Positions 1-59,741 of a DNA stretch of 64,000 bases are shown piece after piece. The DNA is taken from the NCBI GenBank assembly GCA_025830695.1, contig GCA_025830695.1_4111.1. The stretch is one strand, 5' to 3'. Origin of the DNA: a phage. The notes below the pieces were generated by a model. It saw only the letters and a list, made by a program, of their open reading frames with translations. It searched no databases and was not told the DNA's origin. The position numbers were made by a program, and so were the translations under genes. Every line of letters starts with the position of its first letter. Position 1 is the stretch's first letter.

Positions 1-905
1 TCCGTCGAGCAGTTTTATTCATTGGTGATCGTTGTCAATTGCCTCCAGTTGAGTCAGAAGGAACAATGGGCGAGACTAAATTGTCTCCTACGTTTGATGT
101 ACCTGTTCAATATGAGTTAACTGAGGTTTTACGACAAGCATTAGATAATCCGATTCTGGCAGTTGCAACTGCTATTCGTGAGTGTATTGGAACTAGTAAA
201 AATCCATTTGATATTATGCACCAAACATATGGTTTAAGCACTATTACACCTATTGATGATGAAGATTTGTTTTTGAATGTTTATCGTGAATTCATTATGG
301 AAAACAAGGGGTCATCTAAAAAAATATTTGATTTCGTAAATGAAAATAAAATCTTAGCATATACTAACTATAGAGTTAATTTGGCTAATATCTACATTAG
401 AAGTCAACTATTTGAAGTACCAGATGAATTTACTAAAGGTGAGCCAATTGTTTTTGAAAGCATAACTGAGAATAGTCCATATGTAGTACAACAAATTATA
501 CAATGTCCTGAAGTAAAACGTGAAAGTTTCATGGGAATAGATTGTTGGCAATTCCGTTTACCTAATGGTAGTTATATTTTAGGTGTAGGACCAGAAACAA
601 GAATTGCAATGGACGAAAAACTTGATAAACTTGTTAAGGATATTGAGAAAAAAGAAATAAATCCATTGACAAAGAAACCATATATGTGGCAGGATTACTA
701 TGTAATTAAGAACAAATTACATATCATCAATTATCCTTATGCAACCACTGTTCATAAATCACAAGGAAGTACTTTTGATAACATTTGGTTTGATACTGAT
801 TTTATTGAACGTATTGGTACAAATGATACTAAGTGTAGAATTTTATACACTGCCATGACACGCCCACGCTATAGTGTTATGTTGAGGCAAAATGCACGAT
901 TCTAA
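1..905 (+). CDS. dda: Dda-like SF1 DNA helicase, C-terminal part (5' end lies outside window)
   Basis: Frame is open to window start; upstream codons read ...FIGDRCQLPPV (SF1 motif III GDxxQLPPV); C-terminal YATTVHKSQGSTFD is helicase motif VI. Confidence 0.7.
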   Translation, partial: RRAVLFIGDRCQLPPVESEGTMGETKLSPTFDVPVQYELTEVLRQALDNPILAVATAIRECIGTSKNPFDIMHQTYGLSTITPIDDEDLFLNVYREFIMENKGSSKKIFDFVNENKILAYTNYRVNLANIYIRSQLFEVPDEFTKGEPIVFESITENSPYVVQQIIQCPEVKRESFMGIDCWQFRLPNGSYILGVGPETRIAMDEKLDKLVKDIEKKEINPLTKKPYMWQDYYVIKNKLHIINYPYATTVHKSQGSTFDNIWFDTDFIERIGTNDTKCRILYTAMTRPRYSVMLRQNARF

Positions 906-5913: not shown

Positions 5914-5941
5914 GAGACAAACAAAACATTGGTGATACAAT
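5912..5941 (+). promoter_or_regulatory. possible sigma70-type promoter
   Basis: TTGAGA-N18-TACAAT upstream of topoisomerase gene. Confidence 0.35.
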
Positions 5942-5975: not shown

Positions 5976-7940
5976 ATGGCTAAGAAAGAAAGTGCTGTTC
6001 TACAGGAACATGATGTTCAACGACTAAATGATTATCAACATGCTCGTTTGCGTACCGAGATGTATCTTGGTTCTCGTTCAGTGCATGAAAGTCAAGTACT
6101 GATTTTTGGCGAATCAGGTTATGAGGTTAAGAACGTAGAATGGGTTCCTGCAATTCTTACTGCTACACGTGAAATTATTGATAACAGCTTAGATGAATTT
6201 AAAAAAGCTGGAACCAAAGAACCTGTTTTGAAAGTTGATTTCAATGAAGAAGAACTATCATTTGAAATTAGTGACAATGGACGTGGTATTCCAATTGATT
6301 ATGTTCCAGAGTATCAGAAAAACTTGTGTACTATGGTAATGACTGAAACAAAAACAGGCCGTAACTTTGACGATTCAAAACGTGATGAAACGATTGGTCA
6401 GAATGGTTTAGGTGGTTCTGTTGCAATGATTGTCAGTTCTAAGGCAGAGTTAGAAATTCATCGCCAAGGTCGTCCGTATAAAACACAAAGTAGTAATGAT
6501 GGTTATGATGGGTTTTATAAGTTCAATCAGAAGTTTGAGGAAGGAACTATTATGTTCCCTGAGCTTCATGTACACGAACCTACTATTAGAAAGGTACAAA
6601 CCGATAAAACTGGAACAACAATTCGTTTTACTTTGAGTAAAGAAGTTTTTCCAAACAGAAAACTACCAACCGAATTACTTTATAGTATTCTTAAAGAAAT
6701 GGCAGCAGCTAACCCAACTTATAAAATCTTTCTGAACGGGAAACGTATTGCTATTAAAGGAAACACTGAAAAAGCACTCTTCAATGCATCTAAATTAATG
6801 CAGTTGAATGTTAAAGATGATTCATTCAATTTTAACAGTACTTTTTATATTGTTCCTAATGCAGTAGCTGGCATGAACACGAATTTCCATATGCATGGGT
6901 TGGTTAACAATGCTCCTGCATTTGATGGTGGTACACATCTTGATACATTCAAGAAATTCTTCTCACTCGGTGTAGGAACTGCACTAGAGAAAGAATCTAA
7001 GAAACGTAGGATGAAACCTAATCGTTCTGATATTGAAGAAGGTTTGTTGATTTATAATGTCACAACTATGAAAGCACCTTCATTCAACTCACAGATTAAA
7101 TCTAAACTAACTAATGAAAACGTAATCCGTCCAATTCAACAAGCTATGAATACCGAATGGTTTGATGAATTAGTTAAGAAGAACAAAGAATGGGTTGATG
7201 AAATCTTCGAACGTTGTGCTGCCCGTACAAATAAGAAAGATGCAGAAGAAGATCGTCGCCTAGCAAAGAAACTTCTAAAAGGTAAAGTTGCAAAACTATT
7301 GGATAGTACTGGAACAGACCGTTCACAGTGTATTCTATTGATTGCAGAAGGTGACTCTGCAATTTCCAACATGGCTAGTGCTCGTATACCAAGTATTCAT
7401 GGTATTCTACCATTGCGTGGGAAAATTATGAACGTCAGTGGTACTGAGAAAACCAAAGAATTAATGGATTCAATGGCTTTACATGATATAATGGCTAGTA
7501 TCAACTTAGTTCCAGGTGTTAAAGCAGAACGTTCTGAACTAAACTATGGCAAGCTTTACATCTGTGCTGATGAAGATGAAGATGGGAAGAACATTGGTGC
7601 TCTAGTGTGTAACTTCTTATTTAAATTCTGGCCTGAATTGTTTCAAGACCCAGAAAATCCATTTGTGTATGTATTCAAAACACCATTTATCATTCTTGAG
7701 AAAGGTAAAGAATCAAAATACTACTATGGTCATAATGTGCATGAATATAACCCAGATGATTGGAAAGGCTGGAAAGCAACGCGTGCAAAAGGTTTAGGAA
7801 CTTTAGAAAAAGCAAACTTCCGTGATGCATTCACTAATAGTGTTGCAGTAGCGATCACCGATGATGGCCGTCTTGGTGAAACTCTTGATTTGATTTTCAA
7901 CAAGAAACGTGCAGATGATCGTAAGAACTGGATGGAATAA
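5976..7940 (+). CDS. 39: DNA topoisomerase II large subunit (gp39/gp60-type, ATPase + Toprim)
   Basis: 654 aa; Toprim motif LLIAEGDSA; contiguous with no split; RBS AAGGAA. Confidence 0.85.
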   Translation: MAKKESAVLQEHDVQRLNDYQHARLRTEMYLGSRSVHESQVLIFGESGYEVKNVEWVPAILTATREIIDNSLDEFKKAGTKEPVLKVDFNEEELSFEISDNGRGIPIDYVPEYQKNLCTMVMTETKTGRNFDDSKRDETIGQNGLGGSVAMIVSSKAELEIHRQGRPYKTQSSNDGYDGFYKFNQKFEEGTIMFPELHVHEPTIRKVQTDKTGTTIRFTLSKEVFPNRKLPTELLYSILKEMAAANPTYKIFLNGKRIAIKGNTEKALFNASKLMQLNVKDDSFNFNSTFYIVPNAVAGMNTNFHMHGLVNNAPAFDGGTHLDTFKKFFSLGVGTALEKESKKRRMKPNRSDIEEGLLIYNVTTMKAPSFNSQIKSKLTNENVIRPIQQAMNTEWFDELVKKNKEWVDEIFERCAARTNKKDAEEDRRLAKKLLKGKVAKLLDSTGTDRSQCILLIAEGDSAISNMASARIPSIHGILPLRGKIMNVSGTEKTKELMDSMALHDIMASINLVPGVKAERSELNYGKLYICADEDEDGKNIGALVCNFLFKFWPELFQDPENPFVYVFKTPFIILEKGKESKYYYGHNVHEYNPDDWKGWKATRAKGLGTLEKANFRDAFTNSVAVAITDDGRLGETLDLIFNKKRADDRKNWME

Positions 7941-7951
7941 TATAGACTAAT

Positions 7952-7974
7952 GGGGAACATGGTGTTCCCCTTTT
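7952..7974 (+). terminator. intrinsic terminator (likely partial readthrough)
   Basis: GGGGAACA-TGG-TGTTCCCC followed by TTTT. Confidence 0.6.
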
Positions 7975-7990
7975 ACCAAGAGACAATGGA

Positions 7991-9403
7991 ATGGCTAAAA
8001 GTAAAAAAACAGAAAATCATAATATCGATAACCAAACACTAACTCTACTAGATTATAACAGTTCTGATTATGTGAATACAACATCACTAGAATATTCGAT
8101 GTATACACTAGACCGTGCTATTCCTGGAATTGATGGTCTAAAGAGTTCACAACGTAAAGCAATCTTCACATTATCTAAAATTAGTGGGGAAATTAAAACA
8201 GTATCATGTGCTGGAAAAATGATTAGTGATGGTATCTATCTTCATGGGGACACGTCAGCATCGGGAACACTTCAAAATCTAGCATCTCCAGTAGCTAACA
8301 ACTATCCTCTTATTGGAAAACGTGGTGGTTTTGGTACACAAGTAAACAGTACACCAGCATCTGCTCGTTACACTTATGTTAAAAAGAATAAGAGTACTGA
8401 GATGCTTGTTTTGCGTGATGCTGATATTATACCAATGAAAGAGAACTATGACGGGACAACATATGAACCTGTTCATTTCTTGCCTATTATTCCATTATCA
8501 TTGTTTGGTAATGATAGTATGTCAGTTGGTTATAAGAGTACAATTCTACCACATAAAATTGAAGATATTATTGATAATTGCATTCGTGCTATTGATAAAA
8601 AACCACTAAAAGAAATGACCCCATATTATGTTTCATGTGGTGCAAGTGATGTTGTGACTAAGCTTGATGAAAATAAGTATGAATTCTATGGTAAAGCTGA
8701 GGTTATTGATGCAAGCACTGTTAAAGTAACAGGCTTACCACCTAATTACAGTATTGAGAAATTCATCGAAAAACTAATCAAAATGAGTGATGATGGTGAG
8801 ATTCGTGATTATGACAATGATAGTACTGATGTAATTGATATTACCATTAAACTTCCACGTGGAACGTCAGCTAAATGGACAGAGATGGATGTTATTGAGT
8901 ATTTTGGCATTAACAAAAAAATGACTCAACATTTAACTGTTCTAGGTGAAAATGGCAAAGTGAAAGTTTACGATACTACGATGGATTTGATTAAAGACTT
9001 CGTTGATTTCCGTTTCAAATATTACATCAAGCGTTATGAAAAGAAACTTGATGATTGTGCTGCTGAAGTTCGTTATAAAATTCTAATTAAAGAATGTTTC
9101 GATAATGATATGATTGCTAAGGTAAAAGGATTTGCAAACCGTGCTGAAATGGTTGAATTCGTTAAATCGTTAAATACCGAAATTGAAGCGACGGAAGAGA
9201 ATATTCAAAGCATTGTAAACTTCCCTTCATATCGCTGGACGCAAGATAATTATCAATCAGTACTACAAGATATTCAAGATAATCTTGATTTGATGGATAA
9301 GTACAATGAACTGTTATCTAATCATGACTTAATTTGGGACATTTATAAATCTGAACTAAAAGAACTAAGAAAGATTGACTTTACTCCTAAATCAGACAAT
9401 TGA
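7991..9403 (+). CDS. 52: DNA topoisomerase II medium subunit (gp52-type, GyrA-like cleavage domain)
   Basis: 470 aa; N-terminal YTLDRAIPGIDGLKSSQRKAIF resembles GyrA/ParC N-terminus. Confidence 0.85.
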   Translation: MAKSKKTENHNIDNQTLTLLDYNSSDYVNTTSLEYSMYTLDRAIPGIDGLKSSQRKAIFTLSKISGEIKTVSCAGKMISDGIYLHGDTSASGTLQNLASPVANNYPLIGKRGGFGTQVNSTPASARYTYVKKNKSTEMLVLRDADIIPMKENYDGTTYEPVHFLPIIPLSLFGNDSMSVGYKSTILPHKIEDIIDNCIRAIDKKPLKEMTPYYVSCGASDVVTKLDENKYEFYGKAEVIDASTVKVTGLPPNYSIEKFIEKLIKMSDDGEIRDYDNDSTDVIDITIKLPRGTSAKWTEMDVIEYFGINKKMTQHLTVLGENGKVKVYDTTMDLIKDFVDFRFKYYIKRYEKKLDDCAAEVRYKILIKECFDNDMIAKVKGFANRAEMVEFVKSLNTEIEATEENIQSIVNFPSYRWTQDNYQSVLQDIQDNLDLMDKYNELLSNHDLIWDIYKSELKELRKIDFTPKSDN

Positions 9404-20721: not shown

Positions 20722-21816
20722 ATGAATTTCATTATTCTGTTAATACCTGCTCTTATCGTTGTATTCGTTATGAAATACATGTACGATAAGCATATCAGTA
20801 CTAAAGAACTATTGATTCATATTGGTTGTTGTCTGGTTGGTGCGGCTCTTGTTCTTGGTATTTCATACGCAATCAACTATAGCCAGCTTTATGATGTTGA
20901 GATTCTGAATGGTCAAGTAACTTCAAAATACAGCCACAAAGAATATTGCACACAATCTAGTTCATGTAAGCACTATACATGGCATGAGAAGTGCCATACG
21001 CGATATGATAGTAAAGGTAAATCACATCGTGAGTGTGAATCATATAAGGTTTTTGATTACTCATATGAAGTTGATTGGTATGTGAAAAGTACAGTAGGTG
21101 AGTTTGAGATTGAACGTGTGAACCGTCAAGGTACAATGACACCACCACGTTGGCAGCAAGTTATGATTGGTGACTATGCCGCCGCAGAGAGTTCATATAT
21201 CAACTATCTATTTGCTGATAAGAACTCATTGTTTAGTCCTGAAGAACTACACAACATGTATGATGAAAAGTATCTTAGTACTATTCCAGAATACCCAAGT
21301 GTAGTTGATTATTACAAAACACATCACGTAATTAACACTACAAATTACAACGTTGATGGTTACGATGAATACCTTCGTAATGAGCTAAAAACGATGGGTG
21401 CACGAAAGCAGGTAAACATCCAAGTACTAGTTTATGATTACAAAGATGTGGATTTTGTTGATGCTACCCTTGCATCGTGGCGTGGTGGTAAGAAGAATGA
21501 TGTTATTATGTTCTTTGGTATTGACAATGATGGTAACGTTGTCAAATTTTACAGTACATCATTTGCACAAGGAATGAAGAATGAAGAGTTACATGCAAAG
21601 ATGCGTATTGATGCATTAAATGAAAAATTAACTCTTGACTTACTAGTTAAAGAAGTACATAATATTGACACACAGTTTGAGAGACTCTCTAATAAAGAGT
21701 TTGAGTACTTGTCAGTAAAAATGGAACCTAGAAAAGATGTTCTTATCGGTGCTTCCATTGTTTTGTTGATTCTGTCTATTTTCATTGGCCTTTATATGAG
21801 GGATAACGATTTATGA
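20722..21816 (+). CDS. membrane protein (N- and C-terminal TM helices)
   Basis: Hydrophobic N-terminus and C-terminus; Cys/His-rich central part. Confidence 0.55.
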   Translation: MNFIILLIPALIVVFVMKYMYDKHISTKELLIHIGCCLVGAALVLGISYAINYSQLYDVEILNGQVTSKYSHKEYCTQSSSCKHYTWHEKCHTRYDSKGKSHRECESYKVFDYSYEVDWYVKSTVGEFEIERVNRQGTMTPPRWQQVMIGDYAAAESSYINYLFADKNSLFSPEELHNMYDEKYLSTIPEYPSVVDYYKTHHVINTTNYNVDGYDEYLRNELKTMGARKQVNIQVLVYDYKDVDFVDATLASWRGGKKNDVIMFFGIDNDGNVVKFYSTSFAQGMKNEELHAKMRIDALNEKLTLDLLVKEVHNIDTQFERLSNKEFEYLSVKMEPRKDVLIGASIVLLILSIFIGLYMRDNDL

Positions 21817-22367
21817 ATGGTAAACTCCTTGCGTTAATTGGTATTTTGGTAGTTATTGTACTAATGGTGTTTGGTTCTATTAGTATGTATGTTGGTGCAC
21901 ATGATCGTGCAGTTGAGTTTGAAGGAAACATTAAAAAGTACTATGATGCATCTGAAAGTCAACTTAGCAATTATACTCTTACTATTCAAGATAAGGTTCA
22001 AGTAGCAGATAAGTACAAAAATGCGTTGAAAGAAACGATTGAGTCATACTTTAAAGGGCGTGAAGGTGTTGACCAGAAGTTTGTAATGTCACAGATTCAA
22101 CAACAGGTTCCAAATCTTGATCCTAAAATTTATCAGGAATTGATGGTGACAATTGAAGCAGGACGTACAAAGTTCAACAATCTTCAGAAAATGAAAATTG
22201 ACCAGTGTACTGATTATGCTAAGTTCCGCAAAGGCTTCTGGAATTCCAAAATTCTTGATTCGAATACGTTTCCAAGTGAAAATATTGAACACCTTTGTAC
22301 AGTAGTATCTGATACACGTACCAAGAAAGCAATGGATACTGGTATTCAAGAATCAATTAAACTATAA
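21813..22367 (+). CDS. N-terminally membrane-anchored protein (weak LemA-like resemblance)
   Basis: N-terminal TM helix then about 160 aa helical domain; ATGA overlap with upstream gene. Confidence 0.5.
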   Translation: MNGKLLALIGILVVIVLMVFGSISMYVGAHDRAVEFEGNIKKYYDASESQLSNYTLTIQDKVQVADKYKNALKETIESYFKGREGVDQKFVMSQIQQQVPNLDPKIYQELMVTIEAGRTKFNNLQKMKIDQCTDYAKFRKGFWNSKILDSNTFPSENIEHLCTVVSDTRTKKAMDTGIQESIKL

Positions 22368-36536: not shown

Positions 36537-36565
36537 TTGGACAAGAACAGATATTGTGATATAAT
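36537..36565 (+). promoter_or_regulatory. sigma70-type promoter with extended -10
   Basis: TTGGAC-N17-TGaTATAATGTTT. Confidence 0.55.
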
Positions 36566-40108: not shown

Positions 40109-40444
<336 letters not shown>

Positions 40445-40445
40445 A

Positions 40446-40628
40446 ATGACACACGAAGAATGGATGTCCAAACAGCATAAAGAACATGACTGCTTTGGGA
40501 ATGGCATTCGTCAGGTACATTATGATATATTAAGAGATGAAAATCTTTTCAGGTCATATGTTTTGGATACCAGAAAACCCTGGTTTATATGCGAACTGGC
40601 ATTTAGAAAGTCAAATAATCAAAACTAA
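40446..40628 (+). CDS. MTHEEW-family small protein (member 3)
   Basis: MTHEEWMSKQHKEHDCFGNGIRQVHYDILRD... Confidence 0.55.
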   Translation: MTHEEWMSKQHKEHDCFGNGIRQVHYDILRDENLFRSYVLDTRKPWFICELAFRKSNNQN

Positions 40629-40644
40629 ACAAGGAATACAAAAA

Positions 40645-40863
40645 ATGGAAACAACTTTATTTGAAGTTATTCAATCATTAAAACCTGAAGATGAGGTTCA
40701 AGTACTACTACATGGTTATCGTGTAAAAGGTACTGTGGTTTTAGTCAATGATACAACATTGGTTATTACAGAAACAAACCCATATGATAGTAATCAACTT
40801 GCCAATATCCATATCGATATCACTGGAATTATTGGTGTCGGTGTATCTAAAACACTTGCATAA
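40645..40863 (+). CDS. hypothetical protein
   Basis: Trimmed to ATG after AAGGAA. Confidence 0.5.
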   Translation: METTLFEVIQSLKPEDEVQVLLHGYRVKGTVVLVNDTTLVITETNPYDSNQLANIHIDITGIIGVGVSKTLA

Positions 40864-40916
40864 ATCATTAATTCATTATATAATGATTATCACTGGTTCT
40901 AGATGAGGATAATATT

Positions 40917-41189
40917 ATGCATTTTGAAAAATTCAACGTAAATCGTAACACACGCATTGAAGTTCTTTATGAAACTCAAGACACCATTAGTATTCGTACA
41001 AGTAGTGGGGATGTATATCATGACTGTACGATTGGCTGGGAACAGGGAAGGACGCGTAGTGCAGTATTTGATAATTATCGCTTTTATCAAGGAGACACTA
41101 CGATTTGGCCTGAATACGTAGAAGATATTGCGTTTGAAGATGAACATAAAGATGAATTTATCAAATTTAATCCTCAAACTGAATCATAA
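40917..41189 (+). CDS. hypothetical protein
   Basis: 90-aa ORF, RBS GAGGA. Confidence 0.5.
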   Translation: MHFEKFNVNRNTRIEVLYETQDTISIRTSSGDVYHDCTIGWEQGRTRSAVFDNYRFYQGDTTIWPEYVEDIAFEDEHKDEFIKFNPQTES

Positions 41190-41193
41190 ATAA

Positions 41194-41323
<130 letters not shown>

Positions 41324-41326
41324 AAT

Positions 41327-41427
<101 letters not shown>

Positions 41428-41429
41428 CA

Positions 41430-41590
<161 letters not shown>

Positions 41591-41594
<4 letters not shown>

Positions 41595-41751
41595 CACATG
41601 AAGAATGGATGAATGACATTAATTTTAGATATTCGGGTATCGGTAAATGGCTAAAGTATCATTGGGAATTCATTTCAGAGCCACATCTGTATGATAAACT
41701 TATCAACGATCCAGCATATGAAATGTACTTAATTGAACTACTGGTACGATT

Positions 41752-41755
<4 letters not shown>
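41591..41755 (+). CDS. MTHEEW-family small protein (member 5)
   Basis: 54 aa, about 80 percent DNA identity to member 4; ATGA overlap. Confidence 0.5.
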
Positions 41756-41917
<162 letters not shown>

Positions 41918-41925
41918 AAAAAAAG

Positions 41926-42335
<410 letters not shown>

Positions 42336-42339
<4 letters not shown>

Positions 42340-42371
42340 CTAAATAATTCAGTACTGAGGATATTAATATG
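42336..42371 (+). promoter_or_regulatory. degenerate copy of the promoter cassette
   Basis: TTGACTAAATAATTCAGTACTGA then a poor -10. Confidence 0.3.
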
Positions 42372-42396
42372 TTTAAAGATGAACGTCCAGATTTGT

Positions 42397-42444
<48 letters not shown>

Positions 42445-42449
42445 ATCAG

Positions 42450-42782
42450 ACGTATATGGTGTAAGTTACGTCGATGCAATCCAGAACAAGATCTCTGGTA
42501 CTCTAGGAAGTGGTGAATGTTAACCTAGACGGGTTTGATAATTGGACGATAGGCAATTATTACTTGACTAGCAGGTTTAAACTAGAGGTGACTATCCTTC
42601 ACCAAACTGGAAAACCGGATGGACTTTTATTTAAAAGGGTAAGGCGTGGAAATATGTTTACAGAAGTTGCTTTTAGTAGCCTGTACGCCCCACGTCAAGG
42701 TAGCCGAAAGGCAAGTTAAGACGGGTGGTTATAAAGCTGAATTAACAGCGGCGTTTAAAAGCGTCACCATCCATTTTTTTTT
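42450..42782 (+). ncRNA. candidate structured non-coding RNA
   Basis: About 330 nt without a credible ORF, visibly GC-richer than flanks, promoter upstream and T9 run at 3' end. Confidence 0.3.
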
Positions 42783-42798
42783 AATTAAAGTTGGTGAT

Positions 42799-43608
<810 letters not shown>

Positions 43609-43632
43609 ACGAAATTACAATAGGAAATTAAA

Positions 43633-43818
43633 ATGCAACTTTTAATTCTTTCAATATTGTATATTATTATAATGGTTCCGATATCAATACGTTTAATTAC
43701 ACTTGAACGATTTTTATCGAAACATGGAAATAGATCTATGATCTTAGTACCAATCGGGCTTATATTGTTTGGTATTTTTGCATTTATAATGGGAATTAAC
43801 GCTACATTCATTTCATAG
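43633..43818 (+). CDS. small membrane protein
   Basis: 61 aa, two hydrophobic helices. Confidence 0.45.
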   Translation: MQLLILSILYIIIMVPISIRLITLERFLSKHGNRSMILVPIGLILFGIFAFIMGINATFIS

Positions 43819-43827
43819 GAAACAAAT

Positions 43828-44085
<258 letters not shown>

Positions 44086-44093
44086 GAATTTAA

Positions 44094-44495
44094 ATGAAAA
44101 AGAATGACTTGATCAAAATGCTTCAAGAAATTGACGGCAATCCAGAGATTGTTATTTGGAATGGATACGTCGATGATTATATGAACATCGAAAAAGGCTT
44201 GACTAAAATCACTCTAGTCAAAGAAACCGAACAGTTTCTTCAGGGTGCATTAGAGCACGAATGGTGTGAACGTAACAATACATTCGACATTCCAGAAGAC
44301 CAACGAACCAAGATTGCAGAACGTGCTAAAGAACTGCATAAGAAACGTGAATACGATTTCCAGAACCCATATGTCACTGAAGACGAATTCAATCGCTGGT
44401 ACGGTAAAAAGAAATTGATAAAGTATGTCCTTTCACCTAAACTACGTGGTAAGACTTCACTTGGTGTATTCAACGCCGCAGACTTAAACTACTAA
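44094..44495 (+). CDS. hypothetical protein
   Basis: 133-aa ORF. Confidence 0.5.
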   Translation: MKKNDLIKMLQEIDGNPEIVIWNGYVDDYMNIEKGLTKITLVKETEQFLQGALEHEWCERNNTFDIPEDQRTKIAERAKELHKKREYDFQNPYVTEDEFNRWYGKKKLIKYVLSPKLRGKTSLGVFNAADLNY

Positions 44496-44507
44496 GAGAG
44501 TATTTAA

Positions 44508-44981
<474 letters not shown>

Positions 44982-45016
44982 CAGGGGAGGTTGTGATTCC
45001 CGATTCAGTAGCTTAT

Positions 45017-45139
<123 letters not shown>

Positions 45140-45140
45140 T

Positions 45141-45275
<135 letters not shown>

Positions 45276-45277
45276 TA

Positions 45278-45334
<57 letters not shown>

Positions 45335-45419
45335 AGTAAGAGTAAAAATGAAAGTAAGTAAAAAAACTACCAAGCAGCTTGAAGAACTTTGTAGTGCTGC
45401 ACCTATGCCGACTCTTGGC

Positions 45420-45520
<101 letters not shown>

Positions 45521-45532
45521 TATCTTACTTCT

Positions 45533-45622
<90 letters not shown>

Positions 45623-55624: not shown

Positions 55625-55653
55625 TTGACATAACAAATAATATGGAGTACAAT
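55625..55653 (+). promoter_or_regulatory. sigma70-type promoter
   Basis: TTGACA-N17-TACAAT. Confidence 0.55.
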
Positions 55654-55692: not shown

Positions 55693-55953
55693 ATGAAATC
55701 TATTCTCGTTGCAGTTAACTTGGTTGCTTCCCCATCTTTCAACTTCAAACAAGTTGTTGCTGATAATCTGAAGAAGATCTGTCCAAACGCTGAATTAACT
55801 TTCTGTGTGTTTGATTCAGAAAAAGTAACTAAAGTTGATCTAAACTATCTTTTGAACGAAGTAAAAAGCGTTTCTGGTGAAAGTAACTTAAAAGTTCTTC
55901 ATGATATTGCTGATGATTATGATGATACACTTGTAATTTCGGAGAAATTCTAA
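55693..55953 (+). CDS. hypothetical protein
   Basis: 86-aa ORF, RBS AAAGGAAA. Confidence 0.5.
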   Translation: MKSILVAVNLVASPSFNFKQVVADNLKKICPNAELTFCVFDSEKVTKVDLNYLLNEVKSVSGESNLKVLHDIADDYDDTLVISEKF

Positions 55954-55958
55954 ATAAA

Positions 55959-56378
55959 ATGTTTAGATTTCTTCAGTACTTAATCATTAAGTTCTTTGGT
56001 TATCATACGATTGAAGGAAAAGCTACACTTGCACATAAAATCTTTGTAGCATTATGTACGGGTGATTATGACGTATTGAATAAGTACTGTAAATCGCAAG
56101 CATGTATTGATATAATGGCACTTCGTATCTATGAGTGCCAGTTCAATAGATATAATTTTTACCAGTACAGATTTGATAAAGAAGAATTTGATAGCATCAA
56201 AATGCTAAAGAATTTATGTAACAATAAAAAGAATATGCATATATCAGAATTTGTTGCTTTGTATTTTTATTTAAAAAGTTCATTGTATATGAACACGATG
56301 CAAAGATTCGATACTAGAATTAATGTATTCACCGATAAAGAATTTTATATATACGATAAATTCTTAGATAAGGTTTAA
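55959..56378 (+). CDS. hypothetical protein
   Basis: 139-aa ORF. Confidence 0.5.
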   Translation: MFRFLQYLIIKFFGYHTIEGKATLAHKIFVALCTGDYDVLNKYCKSQACIDIMALRIYECQFNRYNFYQYRFDKEEFDSIKMLKNLCNNKKNMHISEFVALYFYLKSSLYMNTMQRFDTRINVFTDKEFYIYDKFLDKV

Positions 56379-56379
56379 T

Positions 56380-56877
56380 ATGACAACTGTTTATATTGAT
56401 AAACGATTAAATTTATTGATTACCGATTCTAGAGTTACGTCAACTATACCACGAAACTTATTTGGTTTTTTCCCACTAAGACCAAAATATCAATATGGAG
56501 TTGTTAATCAAAAAACTTTATATGTACATGACCGTTTATTCAGTGCTAGTGGGGTAGTAAGTGAAATTGATAAAGTACTGGATTGGTTAATTAATAAAGT
56601 ACCAGTTATACCTGACAGAAAGTTAAGTTGCCATTGTGTGCTTCTTTCTAAAGATTATGTTATTCATATGATTTTAACTAAAGGAAAGTTTATTAAAAAA
56701 CTTGAATATCTACATGAAGACTACACTTTCTTTATGGGAAGTGGTGGAGAATACATGCTAGATGCTGCTATTCATGAAGAACATACAACTTTATATGATA
56801 AAGTGTTTAGTACTTTCATGGATGTGCACAACCATGATTGCTTCACAGATGATAATATTAATGTATATCGATTTTGA
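56380..56877 (+). CDS. hypothetical protein
   Basis: 165-aa ORF. Confidence 0.5.
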   Translation: MTTVYIDKRLNLLITDSRVTSTIPRNLFGFFPLRPKYQYGVVNQKTLYVHDRLFSASGVVSEIDKVLDWLINKVPVIPDRKLSCHCVLLSKDYVIHMILTKGKFIKKLEYLHEDYTFFMGSGGEYMLDAAIHEEHTTLYDKVFSTFMDVHNHDCFTDDNINVYRF

Positions 56878-56898
56878 TTTCGTCATTAGGAGATGTAA

Positions 56899-57864
56899 GT
56901 GAAAAAGCTTGATTTAAATACAATTGCCGAAGAAGTTCTGGATGAATGTTTTGCTAATGAAGAAGTCAACACACTAGAAGCCTTAGATTTCGTTGAAGAT
57001 AAAGATGATAATGAAGGTAAAGTACAAAGCAGTTTCAAATATAATATTACACTTAAGCGACCACCAAATGTTTCCAATGAAGATCTAATTCGTGATATTC
57101 AAGCTGGTATCAATGTAAAGAAAAACACTGAACTGTTAGTTCGTTACAATTATGGACTGATTATTGATGTAGCAAGTAAATGTACTTGTTATATCCCATT
57201 TGAAGATAAGATTTCATATGGTGTTGAGGGGTTCATGAGAGCACTAAAAACCTTTGATCTTAATAAGAATGTTAAGTTCATTACCTATGCTTCTTCTAGT
57301 ATTTACATGACAGTCTATAACGAAAGTTCTGACGCTAACTATATGGTACACTTCCCACGTTATATGAGTGTTCATAAGATCAAAGTAAAAAGATTCTGCC
57401 AGGAATATATGCGTAAACATGGTGTTCGCCCAACACCTGAAATAATCTCAGAGGGTACTGGGATTGAGATTCAGCATGTTAATAATTGTTTATTATTTCA
57501 AAGCGAATACACTTCACTGGATGCACCATTAGACGGTGTTACAGATGGTACATTAGGTGACATTATTCATTCACCTGCTTCTGATTTTAACCTCAATGTT
57601 GATAGTATCCGTGCACCTTTACGTTATGCTATCAATGAACTAACTAACGAATTGAGTACTAAAGAACGTGAGATTATCCAGCGTGTTCATGGTCTAGGTG
57701 AATATGAACCTGAAACGCTTCGTGAGATTGCTGATAATGGTTTTGTTGATGATAATGGAAAATATGTTAAATCCCGTTCATCAATACACCGAAAGTACAG
57801 TGAAGCTATGCAAAAGCTTAAGAAGTTAGTACTTGCAAAAGGGTACGAATACGAAGATTTCTAA
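56899..57864 (+). CDS. phage sigma factor (sigma70 region-2 homolog, gp55-like but longer)
   Basis: GTG start after AGGAG; YGLIIDVASK...GVEGFMRALKTFD...KFITYASSSIYMTV matches sigma region 2 / T4 gp55 pattern. Confidence 0.55.
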   Translation: MKKLDLNTIAEEVLDECFANEEVNTLEALDFVEDKDDNEGKVQSSFKYNITLKRPPNVSNEDLIRDIQAGINVKKNTELLVRYNYGLIIDVASKCTCYIPFEDKISYGVEGFMRALKTFDLNKNVKFITYASSSIYMTVYNESSDANYMVHFPRYMSVHKIKVKRFCQEYMRKHGVRPTPEIISEGTGIEIQHVNNCLLFQSEYTSLDAPLDGVTDGTLGDIIHSPASDFNLNVDSIRAPLRYAINELTNELSTKEREIIQRVHGLGEYEPETLREIADNGFVDDNGKYVKSRSSIHRKYSEAMQKLKKLVLAKGYEYEDF

Positions 57865-57872
57865 AGAACAAG

Positions 57873-57897
57873 GGTTGGCTTATGCCAACCTTTTTTT
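57873..57897 (+). terminator. intrinsic terminator
   Basis: GGTTGGC-TTAT-GCCAACC followed by TTTTTTT. Confidence 0.75.
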
Positions 57898-57918
57898 ATG
57901 GGATGAAGTAAAAGTTTG

Positions 57919-57927
57919 TGATATAAT
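57919..57927 (+). promoter_or_regulatory. extended -10 promoter element (TGaTATAAT), weak -35
   Basis: Same TGTGATATAAT element as other promoters; lies in front of ORF-free segment. Confidence 0.4.
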
Positions 57928-57934
57928 TATCTTG

Positions 57935-58400
57935 TACAATTCTGTTGGCATGATATTCATGTACCTGATCCACTCGAAAACGTAGAGGGCAGTTGAGCAG
58001 TCCGACAGTGCGAACAGCAAAAGAAACCCGTTAGATGTGGGCATAGTTTGAACCCCTCACGGCAATGCGGCTGTATAAAGAACCACGTTAGGATAGCTGG
58101 TGGTTCCTTGATAGACATATAAGGATAACACCTTACGAATTATCTAAGGGAGAGTTATCGAATTTTGTACAGGAAAGTTGCGTCCAAAATTTGAGTACTC
58201 ACATTAAGTATTTGATTGCATAGATACTTAATGAAGATACACTATGTTTAAAAGTGTAGACCGTCATATGAAACTGAAGTAGAGAGAAACAGGATGACCC
58301 GCTTTCGCACTCGTTATGAGTAATCTTCAATGCAATAGCTCTGATACCATCAGCGTCAAATTTCCCTCCTTGTGGGGGGAAGAAAAATCCCTTCCTCAAA
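57935..58400 (+). ncRNA. candidate structured non-coding RNA
   Basis: About 470 nt with no + strand ORF, visibly GC-richer than surrounding coding DNA. Confidence 0.3.
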
Positions 58401-58421
58401 TCCCGTCAATATTAAAAGTCC

Positions 58422-58952: not shown

Positions 58953-59741
58953 ATGAGCACTATAGATGAACTGATTCGACGGAATTCAAAATATTACCAA
59001 CCATCAGAAATTGTAGGTAACATTACCAAATCAGAGTTTGGTCCAAATACTCGAAAACTCATTCATGTAATGTCACGTGATGGCTTTAAATGTGATTGTT
59101 GCGGTGAATCTAATGTAGTATTCACTTTACACAAGCACAGTACTAAAGATCGTTATAAATTCAGACCTTATGTACTTAAAGGGAAACGCCTTGTACGCAT
59201 GACGTTAGACCATAATGTACTGGACTGTCTTCAGGGCGGTAATGATAAAGAGAACATGACTGCACTGTGTGAAGATTGTAACGCATTACGCCAGCATAAG
59301 TTTGCTGAATACAGTGAGTTTAAACACTGGTATCATAACGCGGATCGTTCAATCGAGCCTGACGTTAACTACTGCTTCATTGAGTACATTAAGAATGCCA
59401 AAGATACATACATTCTTAAATCAATGTCACCTATTACCGTGTTTCCTGAGAACCTATTCACTACATTAAAGAATAGTTTTATTGTGGGTGATATTGATGC
59501 ATTCAAGTATTTTGACAAAGGTGCAAAACATTTTGAAATTCAATGTCTTAGTACTGCACTATGTGAACTCATTAAAATTTACATAAAAGAGTATTTGGGT
59601 ATTGACAATGTACGTGTACCAGAGTATACTTTTTCTATTGAATTCGATTGTGAATCAATCAAAGAGTTTGGAATTCTTTTCAATAAACAAATAGAACTTG
59701 CAATTCAAAACGAAATCAAGTACTATACTACTAACATTTAA
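58953..59741 (+). CDS. HNH-family endonuclease
   Basis: FKCDCCGES...LDHNVLDCLQGGNDKENMTALCEDCN (Cys pairs, His-Asn-Asn pattern). Confidence 0.55.
   Translation: MSTIDELIRRNSKYYQPSEIVGNITKSEFGPNTRKLIHVMSRDGFKCDCCGESNVVFTLHKHSTKDRYKFRPYVLKGKRLVRMTLDHNVLDCLQGGNDKENMTALCEDCNALRQHKFAEYSEFKHWYHNADRSIEPDVNYCFIEYIKNAKDTYILKSMSPITVFPENLFTTLKNSFIVGDIDAFKYFDKGAKHFEIQCLSTALCELIKIYIKEYLGIDNVRVPEYTFSIEFDCESIKEFGILFNKQIELAIQNEIKYYTTNI

Follow-up and report, generated by a model that had tools for sequence, protein, structure and literature searches.

A protein of the sigma-70 family with regions 2 and 3, a non-canonical region 4 and altered promoter-contact residues in 121Q-type jumbo coliphages, and a candidate class of middle promoters

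Introduction

The gene studied here lies at positions 56899..57864 of a 64,000-nt stretch of phage DNA (GenBank assembly GCA_025830695.1, contig GCA_025830695.1_4111.1; hereafter the window, with coordinates on the + strand unless another record is named) and encodes a sigma factor. It bears on the question of how large phages of the RaK2/121Q type time the expression of their genes without an RNA polymerase of their own. In Bacillus phage SPO1, the host sigmaA is followed by gp28 and then by gp33/34, and these successive phage sigma factors on the host core time the middle and late genes. In T4, the late sigma factor gp55 (185 aa) consists of region 2 only, without regions 3 and 4, and works together with gp33 and the gp45 clamp. 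A summary of the SPO1 cascade is available (PMC13401047).

For the jumbo phages, two papers are informative. Iyer et al. described a “minimal” sigma factor together with an “RpoD-like complete” one in group 2 jumbo phages (PMC7824862). In phage CBB, the early region as predicted includes the gene for CBB_513, a protein whose content of regions 2, 3 and 4 has been published; another protein, the gp55-like CBB_244, has been proposed to serve late transcription (PMC5259590). The papers on Asteriusvirus only mention the sigma gene, and the keyword-searched passages of papers on its orthologues contained neither the features described below (the loss of a tryptophan dyad, a hairpin in region 4.2 and an acidic N-terminus) nor an assignment of promoters. 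Our analysis shows that the window protein belongs to the sigma-70 family and possesses regions 2 and 3 and a non-canonical region 4, and it suggests a role in a transcription cascade, for which a candidate class of target promoters is proposed.

Identification of the Gene and Its Assignment to the Sigma-70 Family

In the six-frame list of open reading frames (ORFs), the gene comprises 966 nt and encodes 321 aa from a GTG start codon. An in-frame TAA directly precedes the GTG; therefore, a longer reading frame is impossible and the start is well defined. A reading of the window made from the sequence only had given the same ORF and the same start, in agreement with the Shine-Dalgarno sequence AGGAG (56888..56892), located 6 nt ahead of the GTG, and with the 121Q record, which holds the corresponding 966-nt coding sequence (CDS; gp167) labelled “RNA polymerase sigma factor.” Over 3 kb the window matches Escherichia phage SHEFM2K (PQ390715) at 100% identity, and it is approximately 98% identical to 121Q, PBECO4, phAPEC6, and Sharanji, all of which belong to the genus Asteriusvirus and have genomes of about 350 kb. 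In the records of this genus the CDS is labelled either “RNA polymerase sigma factor,” as in SHEFM2K, or “RpoD,” as in Sharanji (WNN14470.1). Compared with 121Q, 14 synonymous and 2 nonsynonymous differences were found, both nonsynonymous ones in the N-terminus, and this ratio indicates that the gene is under purifying selection. The gene is an already annotated member of the sigma-70 family in a jumbo coliphage of the 121Q/PBECO4 type; its annotation is present in dozens of GenBank records, and the domain make-up of an orthologue has been published. The finding of the sequence-only reading, as it was stated, adds nothing new in this respect: the gene is known, and what modest interest it holds lies in its non-canonical features and in the cascade proposed below.

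Membership in the sigma-70 family was supported by profile and structure searches, with scores well above chance. The strongest Pfam match was to Sigma70_r3 (residues 162-226, E = 2e-9, 37.8 bits, above the cut-off of 25.3). Sigma factors of the extracytoplasmic function type (ECF, group 4) have no region 3, and this match therefore shows that the protein is not an ECF sigma factor. The region 2 and region 4 profiles, a search with which the sequence-only reading had proposed as a check, matched as well, each just short of its cut-off: Sigma70_r2 at residues 80-140 (E = 7e-5, 23.0 bits against a cut-off of 24) and region 4 at residues 251-279 (E = 3e-5, 23.8 against 24.1 bits), the latter covering profile positions 4-28 of 50. 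The superfamily model TIGR02937 was matched above its cut-off (44.7 against 42.9 bits), and the NCBIfam model RpoD_Cterm aligned over residues 79-283 (E = 6e-25). Among the PHROG families, the only match was phrog_351, “RNA polymerase sigma factor” (E = 2e-60).

In a sequence search of the PDB, RpoD, SigA, SigB, and RpoS were found at E = 1e-17 to 1e-11, and residues 74-279 aligned with residues 373-578 of E. coli sigma70. The AlphaFold2 model had a mean pLDDT (predicted local distance difference test score) of 71, with values mostly of 75-90 in regions 2, 3, and 4, and its comparison by Foldseek returned full-length sigmaS and sigmaA (E ~ 1e-11). The region-2-like core noted in the sequence-only reading is confirmed by Pfam, by TIGR02937 and by the PDB alignments, which run through regions 2.1-2.4. 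The RpoD, RpoS, and SigB equivalog models all scored far under their cut-offs (RpoD_Cterm 88 against 354 bits, RpoS 70 against 379 bits). With these scores, and with changes in the tryptophan dyad and in the residues contacting the -10 element, the protein falls outside groups 1 and 2 as delimited by the RpoD and RpoS equivalogs.

Domain Organization and Altered Residues

The bacterial sigma factors of groups 1 and 2 (E. coli RpoD and RpoS, actinobacterial SigA/SigB) are the best matches of the protein in both sequence and fold, and regions 2.1 to 4.1 are collinear with them over sigma70 residues 373-578. In the alignment with E. coli sigma70, the numbering of the window protein is offset by 300 from residue 99 on (residue n against sigma70 n+300). 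The protein has in common with these factors the motif of the 3.2 linker and, at residues 60-73, a region-1.2-like helix, whereas region 1.1, the non-conserved region and the Trp433/434 dyad are absent, the contacts of regions 2.4/3.0 are changed, and nine residues are inserted in the helix-turn-helix of region 4.2. The similarity of the region-1.2-like helix is weak and visible in the alignment only, the Pfam model Sigma70_r1_2 not being detected in the protein. The roles ascribed below to individual sigma70 residues in -10 reading and melting and in -35 contact are those generally known for sigma70.

The N-terminus (residues 1-49; 56899..57045) is acidic and predicted to be disordered (pLDDT <50), with 14 Asp and Glu against 7 Lys and Arg among the first 55 residues. 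It carries the motif MKKLxLxxIxxEvLdECF, which is kept in four genera and has no equivalent in the sigma70 alignments.

Region 2, responsible for core binding and for recognition and melting of the -10 element, occupies residues 79-146 (57133..57336) according to the Pfam match and the alignments with E. coli RpoD. It retains sigma70 N383, D403, G408, G411, F427, T429, and Y430, and P453 is conserved as well. Trp433 and Trp434 of sigma70 are replaced by Ser133 and Ser134; every orthologue has Ser, Thr or Ala at these positions and never an aromatic residue, and the whole protein of 321 aa contains no Trp. Further substitutions affect Gln437 (Met, M137), Thr440 (Tyr, Y140), and Arg441 (Asn), as well as the region 2.4/3.0 contacts H455 (Y155) and E458 (V158). 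Region 3 with the 3.2 linker (residues 154-226; 57358..57576), modelled as helices over residues 154-199, is the best conserved part of the protein.

Region 4 (4.1 and 4.2) was assigned to residues 234-314 (57598..57840), where AlphaFold2 predicts helices at 234-249, 254-264, 274-279, and 293-314 with pLDDT of 84-89. A 9-residue insertion (residues 280-290, NGFVDDNGKYV; 57736..57768) forms a predicted beta-hairpin (strands 282-283 and 289-290, pLDDT ~85-88) that takes the place of the two-residue turn between the two helices of the region 4.2 helix-turn-helix. The HMM (hidden Markov model) and PDB alignments end at residues ~279-283, that is, at this hairpin. In the recognition helix, R584 is retained, and E585, R588, and Q589 are replaced by S, H, and R, so that most of the sigma70 residues contacting the -35 element are altered. 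The C-terminal region-4-like segment suspected in the sequence-only reading appears to be present, as the Pfam match and a confident four-helix domain indicate; it is not canonical, the Pfam match being partial and the helix-turn-helix interrupted by the insertion. Recognition of a -35-like element, which the same reading had considered, appears plausible.

Distribution and Delimitation of the Subfamily

Full-length sigma genes were detected by tblastn in 71 of 71 records of the RaK2-like clade. Their products share 99-100% identity within Asteriusvirus and 31-44% over the full length in other genera; the orthologues include 121Q gp167, the proteins of PBECO4, phAPEC6, and Sharanji, RaK2_00244, GAP32_490, and CBB_513. 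Orthologues in RaK2-like phages share the early-region position and are often followed by an HNH endonuclease gene. In the paper on fEgEco12 (PMC13070987), the gene was described as “completely absent” from Ecwhy_1, which would imply its dispensability. We reject this statement: positions 1665-2630 of the Ecwhy_1 record (MH791411.1) encode the full-length protein, which, like that of fEgEco12, is 59% identical to the window protein. Since the gene is located near the start of the record, its reported absence probably arose from the permutation of the genome or from the annotation.

An earlier homologue search matched only orthologues of at least 47% identity, and the boundary of the subfamily was therefore drawn by searching 1.84 billion representative proteins exhaustively with HMMER, with clusters formed at 50% identity. 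In this search, 18 clusters scored at least 118 bits and aligned through the insertion, after which the scores fell to 88 bits or less. The hits below the break were canonical sigma factors with alignments typically stopping at residue ~280, and the next hits carried the motifs TYATWWIRQ and VTRERIRQIE. All the inspected sequences of the top set are devoid of the Trp dyad, and all but two contain an insertion with the motif D-x-x-G; in P0036 and P0041 the insert is shorter and the motif is missing. Two clusters just under the break also bear the insertion, P0048 with both signature features and P0047 with one Trp of the dyad. Judging from these sequences, the window protein belongs to a small and discrete subfamily of approximately 18-20 clusters at 50% identity. 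The description of its traits, i.e., absence of the Trp433/434 dyad, a beta-hairpin in region 4.2 and a disordered acidic N-terminus, is new. The recognition helix differs between genera (SRSSIHRKY, SKATLSRRY, and VRGTLHYKF).

Early Position of the Gene

The sigma gene closes a series of four tightly packed genes. Three co-oriented genes for proteins of 86, 139, and 165 aa (55693..56877) precede it, with gaps of 5 and 1 nt between them and of 21 nt to the sigma gene. The nearest promoter upstream of this operon is an early promoter of sigma70 type, TTGACA-17-TACAAT (55625..55653), which matches the consensus at 11 of 12 positions. An intrinsic terminator with a 10-bp stem containing 5 GC pairs, followed by T7, lies 6 nt past the stop codon (57870..57900). 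Sites of the form TTGACA-16..18-TATAAT with at least 11 of 12 matches are strongly biased in the window: 31 were found on the + strand, nine of them perfect, and 2 on the - strand, where about 3 per strand are expected. This distribution points to the whole 64-kb window as an early region that is apparently transcribed by the host enzyme, and expression of the sigma gene is predicted to be early, from a host-sigma70 promoter.

Promoter Classes

Promoters were counted over 264 kb of the 348-kb genome, namely the window and positions 1-100 kb and 184-284 kb of the SHEFM2K record. Within this scope, two early classes of sigma70 type, a middle class and a late class were distinguished, and no further enriched, strand-specific promoter-like motif was revealed.

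The middle class, tG[A/G]GACA-16 nt-TATAAT, is defined here as a putative promoter class on the basis of its sequence and position. Using the expression G[AG]GACA.{16}TA[TC]AAT, 12 sites were found, against 0.5±0.8 expected; all of them lie on the coding strand, and 11 of the 12 have the extended -10 motif TGn. Two of these sites lie ahead of the gene for the single-stranded DNA-binding protein SSB, and others ahead of primase and exonuclease genes, the DNA polymerase operon, M2K_0497, the gp55-type late sigma gene considered below (site at SHEFM2K ~241553) and a noncoding element, in two of its copies. Scanned with a weight matrix for this class, the window gave 5 hits where 0.3 are expected, and all 5 are on the + strand. 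Two of the 12 sites lie in the window, were found by both methods and are proposed as targets of the sigma factor: GAGACA-16-TACAAT with TGa (5914..5941), 35 nt before type II topoisomerase genes, and GGGACA-16-TATAAT with TGa (41195..41222), 11 nt before a tRNA-Ser gene (41233-41322). Further scan hits are a weaker middle-type or hybrid promoter, TGGACA-16-TATAAT with TGa (36538..36565), and a weak middle-type promoter, GGGATG-16-TATAAT with TGa (57900..57927), which overlaps the tail of the sigma terminator and reads into the noncoding element downstream.

Comparable promoters occur in related phages. For CBB, “divergent RpoD-like” promoters TG[A/G]AAC[G/A]-16-TATAAT with TGn have been published (supplement of PMC5259590), which have the same geometry and also precede the gp55-like gene; the upstream element of KP13-7, a phage of the RaK2 group, is TGAAC[A/G] with a spacing of 16-17 nt. 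Consequently, the -10 element and the geometry are constant across genera, and the upstream element is genus-specific: tGRGACA in Asteriusvirus, TGRAACG in Mimasvirus (CBB) and TGAACR in the RaK2 group. The element of CBB/Mimasvirus agrees with TTGACA at 2 of 6 positions.

Of the early classes, one is TTGACA-17-TATAAT; the other consists of an A-tract, cTTGCA-17-TATAAT and a leader hairpin. About 20 copies of the second lie upstream of arrays of small paralogous genes at ~60-79 kb of the SHEFM2K record, outside the window, in the order A-tract, GTACTTGCA, 17-nt spacer, TATAAT, the conserved stretch gttttACATC and, just ahead of the ribosome-binding site, a leader hairpin rich in GC. Since GTACTTGCA is enriched upstream of genes, it had been considered as the mark of a phage-specific class; this was rejected, as the element is part of the early sigma70-type promoter with its UP-like A-tract.

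The motif search upstream of late genes that the sequence-only reading had suggested yielded the T4-type late motif TATAAATA, which, itself or as a close variant, precedes head, baseplate, and tail genes. Despite these occurrences, TATAAATA is strongly depleted over the 264 kb (11 observed, 52±7 expected under a first-order Markov model), a pattern compatible with counter-selection of spurious late promoters.

A Separate Late Sigma Factor of the gp55 Type

The sequence-only reading had taken the window protein for a long homologue of T4 gp55, and although it gave the length of gp55 correctly, the homology itself was not borne out. Alignment of the two proteins, which it had proposed, revealed no homology detectable by BLASTP or tblastn: the BLASTP match covered 22 residues at E = 0.12, and the best tblastn match of gp55 in the window had E = 9.8, so that no gp55-like gene is found within the 64 kb. 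No Asteriusvirus was among the listed tblastn matches of gp55 in the phage collection, and in the PHROG scan the window protein matched neither of the gp55-type families (phrog_234, phrog_12791).

The genome has its own gene of this type elsewhere. M2K_0523, annotated as a “sigma factor for late transcription” of 279 aa (SHEFM2K record 240629-241468, outside the window), matched phrog_12791 (3e-154) and phrog_234, the family of T4 gp55 itself (8e-18); T4 gp55 in turn matched phrog_12791 (5e-7). In tblastn, M2K_0523 found annotated cyanophage gp55 genes at ~1e-8. It adjoins the homologues of SbcC/SbcD (gp46/47), as gene 55 does in T4, whereas the window gene sits among small genes of no known function in the early region, not beside SbcCD. 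Both T4 gp55 and the window protein are devoid of the Trp dyad, and both are phage-encoded factors that redirect the host RNA polymerase, a role that is predicted for the latter. They differ in that the window protein, at 321 aa, contains regions 3 and 4 besides region 2, and in this sense the description of it as a more complete sigma factor than gp55 is accurate. The presence of a complete sigma factor along with a gp55-type one agrees with PMC5259590 and PMC7824862, cited above.

Proposed Role and Alternative Explanations

Our best explanation overall, to which we assign a probability of about 0.5, is as follows. The sigma factor would be made early, from a host-sigma70 promoter. We infer that it binds the core of the host RNA polymerase and redirects it to phage promoters, and it would read the middle class tGRGACA-16 nt-TGnTATAAT in front of the replication genes, a tRNA gene, the multi-copy noncoding element and the late sigma gene. 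Transcription would then pass in three steps from host sigma70 to this sigma factor and to the gp55-type sigma factor on the TATAAATA late promoters. That the protein is a functional sigma factor redirecting RNA polymerase is highly probable; its assignment to the middle class is possible, at somewhat less than even odds. A broader proposal, in which the discrete subfamily melts and reads promoters in a non-canonical way, recognises genus-specific -35-like elements, forms the middle tier of the cascade and switches on a structured noncoding RNA throughout the clade, is tentative and rather doubtful. SPO1 offers the closest functional analogy to the cascade proposed here; the likeness is one of function, and the cascade of this phage would have an RpoD-like sigma factor in second place and a gp55-type one in third.

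The genus specificity of the upstream element speaks for this explanation. Region 4.2 of sigma70 is essentially constant in enterobacterial hosts, and a reader of an element that changes from genus to genus is therefore probably encoded by the phage. In addition, the recognition helix of the sigma factor varies between the same genera as the upstream element, and the same middle geometry occurs ahead of the gp55-like gene in CBB. Several points weigh against it. The middle promoters keep the canonical TGnTATAAT, the classic extended -10 element of sigma70, while the phage protein is devoid of W433/W434, Q437, T440, H455, and E458; such promoters suit host sigma70 better, and the upstream element could be read by a MotA-like activator instead. 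A one-residue code at the position of sigma70 R588, pairing His with G and Ser with A at element position 4, fitted Asteriusvirus and CBB but failed in KP13-7, which combines His with TGAACR, and it is rejected in this form. The Pfam scores of regions 2 and 4 are slightly below the curated cut-offs (by ~1 bit or less), and the literature search found no experimental work on any orthologue.

Based on these points, it can be supposed that the sigma factor is functional and serves another set of promoters, the middle promoters falling to host sigma70, which would read them by their extended -10 element with the help of a separate phage activator or appropriator, as with MotA/AsiA in T4. The residues missing from the phage protein (E458, H455, Q437, T440 and the Trp dyad), the classic TGn and TATAAT of the sites and the failed covariation test fit this supposition, and mimasviruses keep a gene for a helix-turn-helix regulator two genes upstream of the sigma gene. 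AsiA-like proteins are also reported in some group 2 jumbo phages (PMC7824862). However, no MotA- or AsiA-like protein was present among the neighbours of the sigma gene or in the annotation tables examined, and with no other orphan promoter motif in the 264 kb the sigma factor would be left without targets; on balance, we consider this alternative unlikely, though a serious one.

Improbable, in our opinion, is a degenerate sigma factor that binds the core without being able to melt promoters and acts as a decoy, displacing host sigma70 in the course of host shut-off. The dyad Trp433/434, important for -10 melting, is absent throughout the subfamily, no Trp is present in the whole protein, the helix-turn-helix is broken by the insertion, and the acidic N-terminus recalls the inhibitory region 1.1. 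Nevertheless, ECF and gp55-type sigma factors function without this dyad, F427, T429, and Y430 are retained, and the strong conservation of regions 2.3-2.4, region 3 and the recognition helix across 31-85% identity suggests specific contacts with DNA. The idea that the window protein itself is the late-gene sigma factor, a functional equivalent of T4 gp55, could draw on the sigma label of the deposited record and on the absence of a gp55-like gene from the window. It is effectively excluded by the genuine gp55 orthologue with its gp55-like synteny, the gp55-type motif TATAAATA at the late genes, the early position of the sigma gene and its lack of similarity to gp55.

If the sigma factor does read tGRGACA-16-TATAAT, these phages would run a cascade of three sigma factors. 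They would also offer a natural case of a sigma factor that does without the Trp dyad and carries an insertion in the helix-turn-helix reading the -35 element, which would interest specialists in the mechanism of transcription. The promoter classes defined here make the cascade directly testable.

Neighbouring Genes and a Conserved Noncoding Element

The neighbouring genes gave no lead as co-regulators. The operon genes matched PHROGs of unknown function only, apart from a weak match (9e-6) of the gene just upstream of the sigma gene (165 aa, 56380-56877) to a family of HslV-like peptidases. An HNH endonuclease gene (58953-59741) lies about 1.1 kb downstream; in GAP32 such a gene directly follows the sigma gene. 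Elsewhere in the window, adjacent genes at 5976-9403 encode a type II DNA topoisomerase, composed according to Pfam of a 654-aa subunit resembling GyrB (ATPase/Toprim) and a 470-aa one resembling GyrA/ParC; the best middle-type promoter of the window precedes this pair. The interval 40131-45612 holds a cluster of six tRNA genes (one each for Gly, Met, Asn, and Thr and two for Ser), and a weaker TGGACA-type middle site is found near 43167, upstream of the tRNA-Ser gene at 43202.

The unannotated gap after the sigma gene (57930-58420) contains a noncoding element of ~450-500 nt with a highly conserved core of ~200 nt, for which an Rfam scan of the gap revealed no significant family. Paralogues are present in the SHEFM2K record at 21413-21885 and 236393-236841. 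With 4-5 copies per genome, the element was detected at 257 places in 62 RaK2-like records, almost always under no annotated feature, and all three copies examined sit just downstream of a middle-type promoter. It may be considered a candidate for a new family of phage noncoding RNAs. RNAalifold, applied to three copies, predicted a structure of 73 pairs, 23 of which show compensatory changes.

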